Positions 49,619 to 59,474 of a stretch of DNA of 64,000 nucleotides are shown in pieces. Location of the stretch: IMG/VR virus record IMGVR_UViG_3300012006_000002, positions 1 to 64,000 of that record. One strand, 5' to 3'. Source of the DNA: a virus. The notes below the pieces were generated by a model. That model saw only the letters and a program-made list of their open reading frames with translations, had not been told where the DNA came from and made no database searches. The first letter of the stretch is position 1. Each line of letters begins with the position of its first letter. The position numbers and the translations under genes were made by a program.

Positions 49619-49707
49619 TTCTTACGGATAGTACCGAATAAAACGGTAATTGTCCGAAGAGAGAATTATTAGGATTTTACGGAATATGAGTACTACTATT
49701 GATCCGG
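49525..49707. other. Palindrome- and CCG/CGG-rich tract; candidate replication origin
   Basis: TCCGGA x2, ATAACGTTAT x2, GTAGCTAGCTAC; CCG/CGG triplets at roughly 10-bp spacing in an AT-rich background. Confidence 0.4.
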
Positions 49708-50210
49708 TAGCAGACTGGATTCAAAAGGAAATTGTTCCTGCCATACAAGAATCAAGTACATTGTTGTATGAGTTCAGCAGATTGGAATTAAGAGATATTG
49801 TTCAGTCACACGAAATGTTGTGGAAACTGATCACTCTGAACCATAGATTGGGGTTATTGTATGCAGATTGCATTGAACTCAAAAGCGAATTTGAGACACA
49901 GTGCAACGAGGTGCAGTCACAGGTATTGTTGATGCTTGGAGCGCGTTCCGAGTATCGTCTTACCGCGGAAGCTGCTCGATCAGCGGGAGAATTGGCAAGC
50001 AGCAACATCTCGGCATTAACTGCCCTGTATCCCAATGTTGCAAAAATGCTCTCTTCAATTATTCCCGGCGAAGAGCCTAGACGAAAATTGAACAAACTTT
50101 CCGCAATGGTGGATAAGTTGAAGTCAATTCAGAGGGATGTTCAAGAGTCCATAAATGGAATCAAGCATCTCGGAAACAGAGACCTGCAGCATGCTGTACA
50201 TGGTCTCTAG
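49686..50210 (+). CDS. Helical/coiled-coil hypothetical protein
   Basis: All-alpha pattern; loosely reminiscent of UvsY-like mediators (unverified). Confidence 0.6.
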   Translation: MSTTIDPVADWIQKEIVPAIQESSTLLYEFSRLELRDIVQSHEMLWKLITLNHRLGLLYADCIELKSEFETQCNEVQSQVLLMLGARSEYRLTAEAARSAGELASSNISALTALYPNVAKMLSSIIPGEEPRRKLNKLSAMVDKLKSIQRDVQESINGIKHLGNRDLQHAVHGL

Positions 50211-50231
50211 TAATTTATTACTGGAGTTAAT

Positions 50232-50747
50232 ATGCCTTCATTCAAAGAACTCTACGAGCCTGTTGCAAGATTGGCTGCAAGAGAGAACAACATCAACGAG
50301 AATATTTTTTGTGGTTTGATTACCATAGAAAGTAAATGGAACCCAAATGCAGTCAACCCGGACTCTGGTGCTGCAGGTATTGCTCAGATCATGAGGATCT
50401 GGCATCCCGGAGTGAATGTTTTCAATCCTATTGAATCCTTGTACTATTCAGCAAAATTAATACGATCATATTTGAATGTATTCAATGGTGATTACGACTG
50501 GGCATTGGCGGCGTATCACATGGGAATCTCTACGGTAACATCCATGCATACTACATCGGGACAGTTACCATTTTACGAGTTACGTAATTACGTCTATCCT
50601 GTGAATCAATTAGCAATGGAATGCGTCATTCATCAGCCAGTATCAACGCTTATCCCCTCAGTGATGCCTAGCGTTACTCCTGAGGCGTCCTTGCTTGATC
50701 CCCTGTATCTTCTTCTTCCATTGTTGTTTGCCTTGCTTAAACAATAG
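50232..50747 (+). CDS. Lytic transglycosylase (SLT) with C-terminal hydrophobic tail
   Basis: ESKWNPNAV...GAAGIAQIM...ALAAYHMG; ends LLDPLYLLLPLLFALLKQ; GGAG SD. Confidence 0.85.
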   Translation: MPSFKELYEPVARLAARENNINENIFCGLITIESKWNPNAVNPDSGAAGIAQIMRIWHPGVNVFNPIESLYYSAKLIRSYLNVFNGDYDWALAAYHMGISTVTSMHTTSGQLPFYELRNYVYPVNQLAMECVIHQPVSTLIPSVMPSVTPEASLLDPLYLLLPLLFALLKQ

Positions 50748-50749
50748 AT

Positions 50750-51010
50750 TTATCCTCTCGGCGCAATTTCTCGCGAAAGAGGGGTTGCGTCGGTTGATCT
50801 GGTATCGGTCGAGCTTTCAGAAGCTGCATTTTTTGCCCGGAGACTTGTGCTGTAGAATGTTCCCGTAGCCGCACCGACGACACCAGTAAGGACCGGGATA
50901 GCTCCGGGATTTTCTACTACTACGGCAAGATAAATAATTGCCAATATGGACAAAAACCCAATAACAACACCAGCGTACTCAAAAATTGTCGGCGGCTCTT
51001 GAAGTTTCAT
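50750..51010 (-). CDS. Small two-TM membrane protein
   Basis: AGGAG SD before ATG at 51010 on the minus strand; two hydrophobic segments. Confidence 0.7.
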   Translation of the reverse strand: MKLQEPPTIFEYAGVVIGFLSILAIIYLAVVVENPGAIPVLTGVVGAATGTFYSTSLRAKNAASESSTDTRSTDATPLSREIAPRG

Positions 51011-51065
51011 TATGTTACTCCTCATTTATAGTATATAATTATACTTAATAAATACAGTGCCTTTT

Positions 51066-51152
51066 GCTGGGATGATGAAATCGGTAGACATACCTGACTT
51101 AAAATCAGGAGGCGGACATTCCGTCGTGCGGGTTCGAGTCCCGCTCCCAGCA
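51066..51152 (+). tRNA. trnL: tRNA-Leu (anticodon UAA)
   Basis: Acceptor GCTGGGA/TCCCAGC, discriminator A; anticodon arm CCTGA-CT-TAA-AA-TCAGG; long variable arm; T arm GCGGG-TTCGAGT-CCCGC; CCA incomplete (CCT). Confidence 0.97.
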
Positions 51153-51154
51153 CC

Positions 51155-51183
51155 TTGCTAGAGTTGATTCCGTCTGCTATACT
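51155..51183 (+). promoter_or_regulatory. sigma70-type promoter with degenerate operator
   Basis: TTGCTA-17 bp-TATACT, TG extension; spacer contains GTTGATTCCGTC. Confidence 0.65.
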
Positions 51184-51200
51184 GTAGGCAGGAGGACACG

Positions 51201-51515
51201 ATGAATAATTGGCGCGAAAATGATGAACGAGTCATCACAGCCAAGGATACTCAAGACGCACTTCGCATCATTGCGCTTGCGCAGCGTGGGCATGGTTTGA
51301 CGAGGTTCAGGATTATTGATGAACCCGGCTCCGGCCCTCTGGTTGACGAAATCAACAAGTGTGCCGCAGGATGGGGTGTCGGATACGACACGCTAGAGAA
51401 GTATCGCCAGTTCCTGAACAAATCCCGCCCCGGCCACGGGCTTCGCATTACCATTGATCCGATGTGTTACCGGCGAGGCGCAGACTTGATCCGCTCTCTG
51501 AAGGGGTTCATCTAG
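51201..51515 (+). CDS. Hypothetical protein
   Basis: AGGAGG SD, own promoter. Confidence 0.75.
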   Translation: MNNWRENDERVITAKDTQDALRIIALAQRGHGLTRFRIIDEPGSGPLVDEINKCAAGWGVGYDTLEKYRQFLNKSRPGHGLRITIDPMCYRRGADLIRSLKGFI

Positions 51516-51522
51516 ATCGGGC

Positions 51523-51551
51523 TTGACAAGCGTTCCCGCTTGGCTTATAGT
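51523..51551 (+). promoter_or_regulatory. Near-consensus sigma70 promoter driving a non-coding unit
   Basis: TTGACA-17 bp-TATAGT; contains CAAGCG-TTCC-CGCTTG palindrome. Confidence 0.8.
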
Positions 51552-51556
51552 TGAGA

Positions 51557-51705
51557 TGTCGCGTCGGCATCCCCCTTGCTAACCAGTTGCCTTACTGGGG
51601 ACGCGACAAGGCAGCGCAGATACAGAGCCTGTAGTTCTGTAGATTCGTTGTCTACCCGCCTGAATCCCCTTCGGTTTGGAACAAGACCGAAGGGGATTTT
51701 GCTTT
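51557..51705 (+). ncRNA. Candidate structured small RNA (~150 nt) of unknown family
   Basis: Bounded by promoter and terminator; 9-bp P1 closing a three-way junction, second long hairpin, possible pseudoknot; no convincing SD/ORF. Confidence 0.65.
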
Positions 51706-51706
51706 C
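51663..51706 (+). terminator. Intrinsic terminator
   Basis: AATCCCCTTCGGTTT-loop-AGACCGAAGGGGATT followed by TTGCTTTC. Confidence 0.85.
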
Positions 51707-51739
51707 AGTTTCTGACAATTTCCCAGTATTCGCTCGATG

Positions 51740-51768
51740 TTGACGAAACCGTCTGCATTGTGTATACT
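51740..51768 (+). promoter_or_regulatory. sigma70 promoter with GACGAAACCGTC operator
   Basis: TTGACG-17 bp-TATACT; operator 51742-51753 overlaps -35. Confidence 0.8.
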
Positions 51769-51819
51769 TGATGCAGGTGGCCCGCCCAAGCCGGAGTCGC
51801 CAGAAAGAAGGAAGGCACG

Positions 51820-52371
51820 ATGCCCTGCCACGACATTCTTATTGAAACAGCAATCAAGCAAGTGACCAATGAACAGATCAGCGAGACTGTTCCGATGTGG
51901 GACATGATGGCATCTGTCCTTACCATTGATGTTCCCAATGATTTTGGCGCTCGTCCAAATTACGAAAACAATTTGGTTCTTTATCGAATGGCCGGAGGGT
52001 CACTAGATGCAGAACTTGTGCAGCGATACCAGCAGTCCTACGTTGCGCGACAGATCTTTGCCGCACTGGAAGCAGACGGCTACGAAATGCACGCCTACGT
52101 CTCTCCTGATCATGAGGGAACTTGGGTCATTAACGCCAGAGATGTGACTCGAAACGCAACCATCGGCGTTGTTGTCTACAAGACTCTTGAATTTGAGATT
52201 GATTTTCTCGATGTACTTCATGATGATTCTGTCTGGCTCGTGGGCGGTGAATTTGGTCGAGTCATAGAGAAAGTCCAAGCAATGGGACTTGCGACAGAAG
52301 TTGTTAAAATGGACATTGACAACAACGCAAAAGCAATATATTCACAAGAATCAAACGCTTTGTATTCATAA
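51820..52371 (+). CDS. DUF1257(Ycf35)/DUF2997-like protein, putative AAA+ ATPase partner
   Basis: MPCH..IETAI start, LVQRYQQSYVARQIFAALEADGY helix, Y.QE-type ending; near a Ycf46-like ATPase; family call from memory. Confidence 0.5.
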   Translation: MPCHDILIETAIKQVTNEQISETVPMWDMMASVLTIDVPNDFGARPNYENNLVLYRMAGGSLDAELVQRYQQSYVARQIFAALEADGYEMHAYVSPDHEGTWVINARDVTRNATIGVVVYKTLEFEIDFLDVLHDDSVWLVGGEFGRVIEKVQAMGLATEVVKMDIDNNAKAIYSQESNALYS

Positions 52372-57299: not shown

Positions 57300-57321
57300 G
57301 CGGGGCTGGATCCAGCCCCGC
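57300..57321. repeat. Perfect 22-bp palindrome before the primase gene
   Basis: GCGGGGCTGGATCCAGCCCCGC. Confidence 0.9.
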
Positions 57322-57335
57322 ACTCACCGAGGGGG

Positions 57336-59474
57336 ATGCCTGTGACAAGTACGCTAGAGGACACTCTCTCCATCCTTTTTTCATATGTCGATAAGGGATG
57401 GAATATTTTCCCAATAGAAAAGAATGGTAAACGCCCAGTTGTTGTAAGCCGGGGGAAGGATAACTCTGGAGAAGAGTTTGAGGTTAGATTGAAGTGGAAT
57501 ACATTTCAATACAACAAGAATACCAAGGATCAGATAAAGACTTGGTATTCTCAGTTTCCGGAGTGCAACTGGGCAGTTGTGTGCGGCAAGATATCAAATC
57601 TTGTTGTAATGGATGTGGATGGGGATCTGGGAATTGCTTCTCTTCAAAAATTTCATCCGGAAATACAATCAACAAAGACATGGATGCAAGCAAGCCCACA
57701 TGGGTTTCACATGTTTTTTCTACACCCCGGCAGTGACGTAAAAAGTTTCCCTATTCTGCCAAAAGTTGACATCAAAGCAGATGGTGGATACATTGTTATC
57801 CATCCATCAAAAATTGATGAAGAGCAGTACAGAATCCTGATTGAGGCTCCCCTTGCAACATGTCCGGGGTGGATCGTCCGTGGTGAATCCTCACGAGACG
57901 ACAATGAATCTGAGGCTGCCCCCGTTTCTGCCGAAAAGACCAGACCCCAATGGGTTTCTGATCTTATTGCTCATGGCTCTCCTTCTGGAACACGAAATCC
58001 AGACGCTGCTCGCCTTGTAGGATATTTCTGGAATAAGGGAATAGGCAAGGACATTATCGAGACCATCATGGCTCCATGGGCGGAGCGTTGTCAGCCTCCC
58101 TTTTCAATGAGAGAACTTCAGACAGTGATTCGAAGCATTTGTTCATATCAGCAAATGGCAAAGAATCACGGAGTGGTTGACCCTCCTACGATGAGTTCTA
58201 GTGGTACTGGCATGAAATACACTTGGCATACGTTCAAGGTGGATATTGTCATATCAAAAGTTCTGGATACTGATCGCTTCGGACTTGTTGGGGAGTGGGA
58301 GGTGCAGACGAATGGCATTCCCTCCCTGCCAAAATATCTCTATGGCCCCGTGGCAGTTACAATGAAGGACGGACAGAAATTGTCCGCGCTGGTCACGGAA
58401 CTTGAGAAGCGGATGTTTGGACCTCCGTGGCGTCAGATGGTCAGTGACGTAGCGCGGCTAAGCATCGGTCAGTTCACTCGGGGGCAGCCATGGAGCCTTC
58501 TGCGAGATGCGCCCCGCGCACAGCAGATGGGATACGCACACAGGCCTCTCCTGTTGGCCAAGGAACCCACCCTTTGGTTCAGCGCGGGTGGTGGCATGAA
58601 AAGCTACCTAGCCCTCGCTCTGGGCATACAAATGGAAACGGGCATTGATCTTGGGCTGGGAACTCCGCTGGTCCGGAATCATGTCGCGTACCTTGACTGG
58701 GAATGGGATATTGGCCAACATGCGCGACGATTGGATACAATAATATCTCCGTCAGACCAAGAGCGACTTGGCGTCAATATTGTCTACCGGAATTGTGGAG
58801 GCAGACCGCTTCGCAATCAGATTGACGAACTAAAGCGACTTATCGCACAAGAAGGAGTGACGTATGTCATTATTGACTCTGCTAGTCCTGCTTGTGGTCG
58901 TGCTAGCGATAATGACGAGATTGTGGCGTTCTTTCAGAGCATCTCACAACTCAACGTGGGGTCATTAATTCTCGCTCACATCACGAAGAATGATAGAAAT
59001 TCTCAGGATGATGTCCAAACTGCTTTCGGTGGAGTGCAGTGGGAGAATCAGGCTCGATCAACGTGGCATATCCGCAAGGTTCAGGAAGAGGGAAGCAACA
59101 TATCCGACCTCGTCATGACACACCAGAAAATAAATGCTGGTGCAATGAATCCCCCGATTGCGATACGATTTCAATTTCCTTATGAAGACGAGCCGGGTGG
59201 ACTGGTAAGTTTCCAGATGATGAATCCCTCTGATCTTTCTCCTGAATCACTGAAAGACAGCGGGATAAGTTTCAGGGATAAGATTAAGTTTGTCCTGAAA
59301 AACAAATCCATGTCGGTAGAAGACATTGCCGAGGCCATGAGCATGAGTCCATCACCGGGCTTGGTCAATACCCTTAAGGCCATGGAGCAGAACACCCTGA
59401 CACGAATCGTGAGGAATGTCGGTGGCCAGCAGGTGGAGTGCTGGGGGCTTCGGTTTGGACGAACAGCAGATTGA
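57336..59474 (+). CDS. Bifunctional primase-polymerase, PriCT and RepA/AAA_25-like helicase fusion
   Basis: GWNIFPI, NWAVVCG..LVVMDVD, GFHMFF, DIKADGGYIVIHPS; GTRN..AARLVGYF; YLDWE, VIIDS, LILAH; start may be GTG 57342. Confidence 0.9.
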   Translation: MPVTSTLEDTLSILFSYVDKGWNIFPIEKNGKRPVVVSRGKDNSGEEFEVRLKWNTFQYNKNTKDQIKTWYSQFPECNWAVVCGKISNLVVMDVDGDLGIASLQKFHPEIQSTKTWMQASPHGFHMFFLHPGSDVKSFPILPKVDIKADGGYIVIHPSKIDEEQYRILIEAPLATCPGWIVRGESSRDDNESEAAPVSAEKTRPQWVSDLIAHGSPSGTRNPDAARLVGYFWNKGIGKDIIETIMAPWAERCQPPFSMRELQTVIRSICSYQQMAKNHGVVDPPTMSSSGTGMKYTWHTFKVDIVISKVLDTDRFGLVGEWEVQTNGIPSLPKYLYGPVAVTMKDGQKLSALVTELEKRMFGPPWRQMVSDVARLSIGQFTRGQPWSLLRDAPRAQQMGYAHRPLLLAKEPTLWFSAGGGMKSYLALALGIQMETGIDLGLGTPLVRNHVAYLDWEWDIGQHARRLDTIISPSDQERLGVNIVYRNCGGRPLRNQIDELKRLIAQEGVTYVIIDSASPACGRASDNDEIVAFFQSISQLNVGSLILAHITKNDRNSQDDVQTAFGGVQWENQARSTWHIRKVQEEGSNISDLVMTHQKINAGAMNPPIAIRFQFPYEDEPGGLVSFQMMNPSDLSPESLKDSGISFRDKIKFVLKNKSMSVEDIAEAMSMSPSPGLVNTLKAMEQNTLTRIVRNVGGQQVECWGLRFGRTAD

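Follow-up and report, generated by a model that had tools for sequence, protein, structure and literature searches.

A putative stand-alone structured RNA of a freshwater phage with candidate antisense pairing to the phage's own mRNAs

The window that we analyzed, the first 64 kb of a 102,766-bp IMG/VR virus record, contains an element that, judged from its sequence, is a conserved non-coding RNA gene running from promoter to terminator, lying outside the described families and belonging to a narrow freshwater phage lineage. We place roughly even odds (a probability of about 0.5) on its product being an independently transcribed, trans-acting antisense sRNA of a new family that pairs with the phage's own mRNAs. 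A base-pairing regulator appears the most likely function because the RNA includes a stretch perfectly antisense to a distant phage gene as well as a loop matching the ribosome-binding site of the primase gene. What is new here is a 23-bp antisense match to a site at 88 kb, which the original prediction missed and which appears to be the strongest lead. Its transcription and in vivo pairing, and the direction and timing of any regulation, are what we infer.

The record is about 59% complete according to CheckV, and its genes lie mostly on the + strand, with structural and lysis genes in about the first 50.7 kb (from position 1) and a replication block after them. The same phage DNA was found in freshwater, lake and river metagenomes from 13 studies, and GenBank phages matched only the tRNA. 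Within this 59%-complete record we found neither an integrase or resolvase nor lysogeny genes. Table 1 lists the features of the locus and of its candidate targets.

Table 1. Positions of the RNA, its structural parts, its neighbors and its candidate targets in the virus record
Feature	Position	Strand	Remarks
tRNA-Leu(UAA)	51066-51154		ARAGORN and Rfam; 400 nt upstream of the RNA
104-aa ORF	51201-51515		Between tRNA-Leu and the RNA promoter; own promoter-like site at 51155-51183
Sigma-70-type promoter TTGACA-17-TATAGT	51523-51551	+	11/12 match; -35 at 51523-28, -10 at 51546-51
5′ domain, three-way junction	51557-51608	+	MFE and centroid folds agree
P1, 9 bp (TGTCGCGTC / GACGCGACA)	51557-65 / 51600-08	+	Closes the junction
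P2, 4 bp (GGCA/TGCT)	51566-69 / 51577-80	+	C-rich loop L2, UCCCCCU, 51570-76
P3, 5 bp (CCAGT/ACTGG)	51583-87 / 51594-98	+	Loop L3, UGCCUU, 51588-93
Hairpin 2, 45 nt, interrupted	51609-51653	+	Outer stem 51609-16/51646-53, inner stem 51621-28/51634-41
Intrinsic terminator	51662-51706	+	16-bp stem (51662-51699), 6-nt loop, then UUUUGCUUUC
Candidate seed 1, GGCAUCCCCCUUG	51566-51578	+	P2 5′ strand, L2, start of P2 3′ strand
Candidate seed 2, UCUACCCGCCUGAAUCCCCUUCG	51651-51673	+	Last 3 nt of hairpin 2, single-stranded linker, terminator 5′ arm
Promoter of the downstream 183-aa gene	51740-51768	+	Separate from the RNA; bounds the unit
AAA+ ATPase	53.4 kb		Replication block
Candidate target 1, CGAGGGGGAUGCC	57328-57340	+	SD and AUG of the Prim-Pol/helicase gene
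Prim-Pol/helicase gene	57336-59474	+	Pfam Prim-Pol, PriCT_1, AAA_25
Candidate target 2, 762-aa ORF	87576-89864	+	Site 88026-88048 in its interior

A promoter-to-terminator unit and its predicted fold

The promoter and every other motif named in the original prediction are in place. Eight sites in the 102.8-kb genome reach the same promoter score, and the one ahead of the RNA is alone among them in combining a perfect -35 hexamer with a 17-bp spacer on the + strand. The expected start of transcription, at about 51556-51558, coincides with the first base of the 9-bp closing helix, and the predicted RNA extends from 51557 to 51706 (about 145-150 nt). Its own promoter and a Rho-independent terminator thus frame a short predicted non-coding transcript, the arrangement expected of trans-encoded sRNAs. 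The promoter of the next gene contains a dyad, GACG-N4-CGTC, both arms of which are kept in a metagenomic homologue described below (GACGGCACCGTC) while the center is altered.

The minimum free energy of the predicted RNA is -75.4 kcal/mol (z = -7.97), and none of 200 dinucleotide shuffles folded as well. The MFE structure, which is identical to the centroid, consists of a three-way junction, the hairpin at 51609-51653, a linker and a 16-bp terminator, in that order, so that both the junction and the second hairpin of the original prediction are reproduced exactly; the strong terminator it had proposed also forms in this fold, with a pairing probability of about 1. Folded alone, the three-way junction has a predicted energy of -23.9 kcal/mol (z = -3.7; 2/500 shuffles). 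Linker bases 51654-57 and 51660-61 are unpaired with a probability of about 1.

The original prediction also proposed switchable pairings, and the complementarities on which it drew (TGCCTT with AAGGCA, TCCCCCT with AAGGGGA) do exist. As alternative pairings they are energetically uphill: the pseudoknot between L3 and AAGGCA would gain -6.7 kcal/mol against a cost of +10.1 kcal/mol to open the partner, and for L2 paired to the terminator's 3′ arm the corresponding figures are -9.9 and +21.9 kcal/mol. Overall the alternatives are net uphill by +3 to +12 kcal/mol, and none that is stable competes with the terminator. The pseudoknot loses further ground in the homologue, where AAGGCA has become AAGACA without a compensating change.

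These energies bear on whether the RNA might instead act in cis on the 183-aa gene and AAA+ module that follow it, as a leader, attenuator or insulator in which transcription begun at 51523 would stop, whether conditionally or always. The RNA and that module do lie next to each other on one strand, with the RNA upstream, and L2, being similar to the terminator 5′ arm, might conceivably compete with it for the 3′ arm. We nevertheless consider such a role quite unlikely, and a riboswitch or attenuator is unsupported because the pairings are uphill, the MFE and centroid folds coincide and the downstream gene keeps its own promoter. That promoter follows the terminator and is conserved, and relatives that lack the RNA (L004 and L006) retain both it and the gene, which leaves the attenuator of the original prediction without support. 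No mutually exclusive terminator and antiterminator folds and no gene dependent on read-through were found, nor did Rfam return a riboswitch or leader family.

The position of the RNA between the late/lysis block and the replication genes (the AAA+ gene and the primase gene at 57.3 kb) would also suit an element that acts as DNA or in priming, for example a promoter associated with an origin, or a primer RNA where the replication module begins. This seems highly unlikely: iterons and tandem repeats are absent, GC skew computed in 2-kb bins is unremarkable at 50-52 kb, and an efficient terminator argues against a primer that is to be extended onward. An antitoxin, another of the earlier suggestions, found no backing either, as neither tandem repeats nor a toxin partner is present; with type I and type III systems in mind, we note that the overlapping ORFs are not conserved in frame and that the 104-aa ORF is missing from the homologue that bears the RNA.

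The earlier judgment that the locus holds no convincing ORF was borne out. The sense frame spans 8 codons in the window versus 63 in the homologue, both sense and antisense ORFs shift frame between the two because of +2/+2-nt indels, and no protein resembling the sense ORF occurs among 5.8 billion predicted proteins.

The Rfam search that the original prediction called for returned no family for the RNA. With Rfam 15, whose scope includes the C4 antisense RNA, riboswitches, ribozymes, 6S, Y RNA and tmRNA, only tRNA-Leu was found in the whole window at the gathering score, and in a search of 51000-52000 at E<=10 the RNA was overlapped only by chance-level miRNA hits (15-17 bits versus gathering scores of 69-88). 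No relatives turned up in IMG/VR with a 19-mer of the linker and terminator, a 21-mer of L2, or a strict or loose three-way-junction pattern; a 17-mer of the hairpin-2 apex gave nine matches of 17-19 nt, all due to chance. A covariance model (R1) detected no paralogue in the phage genome and no copy in four related phage records.

Conservation in a diverged homologue and absence from other relatives

Scanning JGI metagenomes with the terminator stems yielded three loci, only one of which, the 1,984-bp contig L009, is a true homologue; the other two (L010 and L011) are unrelated terminators. L009 has, in order, a minus-strand membrane ORF, tRNA-Leu, a promoter, the RNA, its terminator, a promoter and the 183-aa gene. 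The 104-aa ORF of the window is missing there, and the tRNA adjoins the RNA promoter. Since L009 keeps the RNA without that ORF, the RNA is not tied to it. The 104-aa ORF, which has no Pfam or PHROG match and no relative in IMG/VR, looks like a moron-type insertion. The 91-aa membrane-type ORF at 50750-51025, flanked by the SLT gene and the tRNA, is on the minus strand, where this + strand phage genome has few genes, and its protein is conserved in L009.

Identity between the window and L009 varies widely along the locus. It is 0.80-0.82 in the coding flanks, 0.92 in the tRNA, 0.79 in the promoter region, 0.75 in the three-way junction and 0.76 in hairpin 2, rises to 1.00 over the 46 nt of linker and terminator (part of an identical run of 54 nt, 51647-51700), and is 0.57 in the spacer to the next promoter. 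In the promoter, both hexamers (TTGACA/TATACT in L009) and the 17-bp spacing are kept, with 4/17 spacer bases changed. In the junction, 7 bp of P1 and the whole of P3 are invariant and a G.U pair of P2 has become G-C, whereas the two 2-nt insertions and most of the substitutions fall in L2, L3 and the junction itself; the loop cores CCCC and GCCUU are conserved. Hairpin 2 keeps all 19 nt of its apex (51623-51641) unchanged; in its outer stem A-U replaces G.U at two pairs, and the internal loop has been rewritten. Helices that are kept while loops vary form the pattern that a structured RNA would show. Together with a promoter of its own, a terminator and the lack of an Rfam family, this retention of promoter and helices in a diverged relative strengthens the original proposal of a novel phage sRNA.

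Covariation can be read from two DNA sequences only, and among 45 pairs they give no double-sided and four one-sided consistent changes. Folding of L009 favors, by a predicted 5 kcal/mol, a different third hairpin over the conserved CCAGU/ACUGG pairing, and P3 is therefore not proven.

The fully conserved 3′ block of the RNA could reflect mosaic recombination, as a second near-identical block exists between the same two sequences. This other block, 173 nt at 50082-50254, differs at only two positions, where identity around it is about 80%; it runs from the 3′ end of the ORF at 49650-50210 into the start of the SLT gene, and may represent either a patch of recombination or a further nucleic-acid element under constraint. 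A diverged strain from run X16, assembled as a 610-nt contig, has three differences in the 84 nt of the RNA that it covers (51623-51706) versus 65 in 412 nt of the next gene. This was the one diverged contig from the reads of four DNA runs, in which the phage was present and no new full-length variant appeared. No RNA sequencing run containing the phage was found, and the single metatranscriptome of the same study shared almost no sequence words with it.

Three Logan contigs (P0002, P0041 and P0042) encode an N-terminally extended gene product, the extension being the translated 3′ part of the RNA. Working back from the protein sequence of the P0002-type variant, its terminator would translate identically to that of the window, and 9 nt over the 3′ strand of the hairpin-2 outer stem would be absent.

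More distant relatives of the 183-aa gene (L004-L007; 58-62% protein identity) lack the RNA and carry a promoter immediately before the gene; in L006 this promoter comes straight after the SLT transglycosylase gene. Because relatives at about 60% protein identity are without the RNA, the stretch 50750-51740 is a lineage-specific variable insertion by tRNA-Leu. Such a setting might suggest a functionless orphan transcription unit, such as a decayed moron remnant or a spacer retained because it carries a promoter and a terminator, in a region where a 104-aa ORF was gained in the window and not in L009, and the narrow distribution (one homologue in JGI metagenomes, none in IMG/VR) would fit. We find this distinctly improbable in view of the extreme fold (z = -8), the helices that are kept while loops vary, the invariant 54 nt at the 3′ end and the unique antisense match described next.

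Candidate pairing with two phage mRNAs

Seed 2 is complementary to genome positions 88026-88048 on the + strand over 23 continuous base pairs (22 Watson-Crick and one G.U; 20 contiguous and perfect), and the similarity ends abruptly on either side. In an all-against-all k-mer search of the 102,766 bp, this match was the only distant inverted repeat of at least 16 nt. Direct repeat runs number 195, nearly all of them in an array at 95-102 kb; the region 95600-102400 is a dense array of direct repeats with units of 45-122 nt and many pairs, and has no sequence in common with the RNA. Since the site lies within a + strand ORF, the RNA is antisense to the mRNA of the 762-aa gene.

Searches of Pfam, PHROG and PDB gave no match for the 762-aa protein. 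An HGDNHEYN...DNG motif is present in its C-terminal domain, for which the ESM Atlas suggests PI3/PI4-kinase and LepB_N, as leads only. The gene is one of two adjacent paralogues, of 502 and 762 aa, located outside the window (genome 86039-89864; L008 6040-9865), which have in common a C-terminal domain with the motif HGDxHxxN...DNG; Arg-rich internal repeats lie upstream of that domain in the 762-aa protein.

Energetically, the 10-nt linker ACCCGCCUGA alone would hybridize with -19.4 kcal/mol, or -9.5 kcal/mol net after both partners are opened, and the full 23-bp duplex with -47.5 and -12.5 kcal/mol, respectively. Half of the 23-nt match is locked in the very stable terminator stem, at an opening cost of +24 to +29 kcal/mol. 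In genome-wide duplex scans the 88-kb site ranked first for the whole RNA, and for the linker it was an outlier (z = -7.7, with the next site at -4.3). Seed 2 is 100% identical in L009. The match could also be a relic of an inverted duplication.

The second candidate contact involves L2. Seed 1 can form 13 bp with the start of the primase gene, 11 of them contiguous Watson-Crick pairs, with a hybridization energy of -26.2 and a net energy of -8.6 kcal/mol. This is the best score among 111 translation-initiation regions, and it was reached by none of 400 shuffles of the loop sequence, a lenient control because shuffling breaks the C-run of L2. Genome-wide, the match stands barely above other G-rich sites (z of -5.0 versus -4.8). 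The anti-SD regulator of the original prediction thus receives some support from pairing that takes in both SD and AUG. The C to U change in L2 of L009 would retain the primase pair as G.U, and the primase initiation regions of phages that lack the RNA are unrelated; both observations are compatible with the pairing and neither is decisive. Opening the primase initiation region costs 10-12 kcal/mol. A GC-rich hairpin, GCGGGGCTGGATCCAGCCCCGC (57300-57321), lies immediately upstream of the primase SD and may occlude its G-rich sequence.

Two other pairings were discarded. One, between L2 and a site designated '80488', concerned a spurious ORF over the minus-strand thymidylate synthase gene (genome 80111-80923; L008 112-924), which is thymidylate synthase-like as read from its translation. 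The other, between L3 and the ribosome-binding site of the gene at 51820 (AAGGCA), was found for 1/111 genes, which is chance level, and is lost in L009.

The RNA thus presents accessible seeds complementary to distant mRNAs, as trans-encoded sRNAs do, with the 88-kb site appearing to be the stronger candidate target and the primase initiation region the second. A structured RNA that functions without pairing to phage mRNAs, for instance by binding a protein as a decoy or sponge, by counteracting defence or by regulating host mRNAs via its C-rich loop, would account for much of the conservation: a fast-evolving junction that yet keeps its helices while the loops change, the preserved CCCC and GCCUU cores, and an invariant terminator loop and hairpin-2 apex that a plain terminator would not need. 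The 23-nt match would then be historical. We regard this as possible if somewhat unlikely, since neither a protein partner nor a host target suggests itself and it leaves unexplained why the sole distant antisense match falls exactly on the accessible linker; moreover, the 20-mer of the seed has no meaningful match in 185,579 prokaryote genomes (two chance matches within coding genes).

If the RNA is indeed a trans-acting antisense sRNA, a strong host-type sigma-70 promoter would start it at the closing helix P1 and the 16-bp intrinsic terminator would end it. The single-stranded linker would nucleate a duplex with the mRNA of the 762-aa ORF, and this duplex would extend to 23 bp by invading the terminator 5′ arm. 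A duplex this long would be expected to attract RNase III or to obstruct translation, and thereby to reduce expression of the 762-aa gene. In addition, L2 and its flanking bases may cover the primase SD and AUG, in which case translation of the Prim-Pol/helicase would be repressed.

A bolder version, which we hold to be doubtful, joins the two contacts by analogy into a two-seed master regulator, in which L2 would restrain the primase-helicase and the 23-bp duplex would silence the kinase-like gene 36 kb away. Were this true, a large freshwater phage without a recognizable protein repressor or integrase in its sequenced part would possess a switch made of RNA that serves to delay replication, to maintain pseudolysogeny or to confer superinfection immunity. 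Its logic would be analogous to that of the RNA immunity factors c4 (P1) and CI (P4), with the RNA made here from an unregulated strong promoter.

Relation to known phage and bacterial RNAs

Few sRNAs of environmental phages are known, and those characterized are nearly all from coliphages or prophages of pathogens (PMC12197685). The RNA described here would be an independently transcribed phage sRNA whose two predicted targets, a replication primase and a large kinase-like protein, are encoded by the same phage. If confirmed, it would extend the classical cis-antisense cases among phages to control in trans and would count as a new RNA family, although even then no principle would be changed.

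The c4 RNA of P1/P7 is a structured phage sRNA that pairs a loop or single-stranded sequence with the mRNA of the ant operon (Citron & Schuster 1990, as cited in PMC12197685). The present RNA resembles it in being phage-encoded and structured, with candidate pairing to the phage's own mRNAs. c4 is processed from the operon under its control, and its targets lie a few hundred nucleotides away. Here, in contrast, the RNA has its own promoter and terminator, its candidate targets are 5.7 and 36 kb off, it does not match the Rfam C4 family in sequence or structure, and no lysogeny genes accompany it.

The OOP RNA of lambda and the sar RNA of P22 are short, terminator-ended RNAs that form long perfect duplexes with phage mRNA, leading in the case of OOP to cleavage by RNase III (PMC12197685). 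Our RNA likewise ends in a terminator and has the potential for a long duplex with a phage mRNA. Both OOP and sar are cis-encoded, opposite their target, whereas the present RNA and its candidate 88-kb target occupy different places on the + strand, so that the complementarity must have been acquired or kept separately.

Trans-encoded sRNAs of bacteria and prophages include DicF and RsaE/RoxS, the latter being sRNAs with C-rich loops. The likeness to this group lies in an own promoter, an intrinsic terminator, an accessible seed, and a C-rich loop facing a G-rich SD; the differences are that the 23-bp match is much longer than the usual seeds and lies inside a coding region, and that the U-tail is short (UUUU). 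Taking these analogies together, the RNA would work like c4, OOP, sar and the trans-encoded sRNAs while standing outside their sequence families (PMC12197685).
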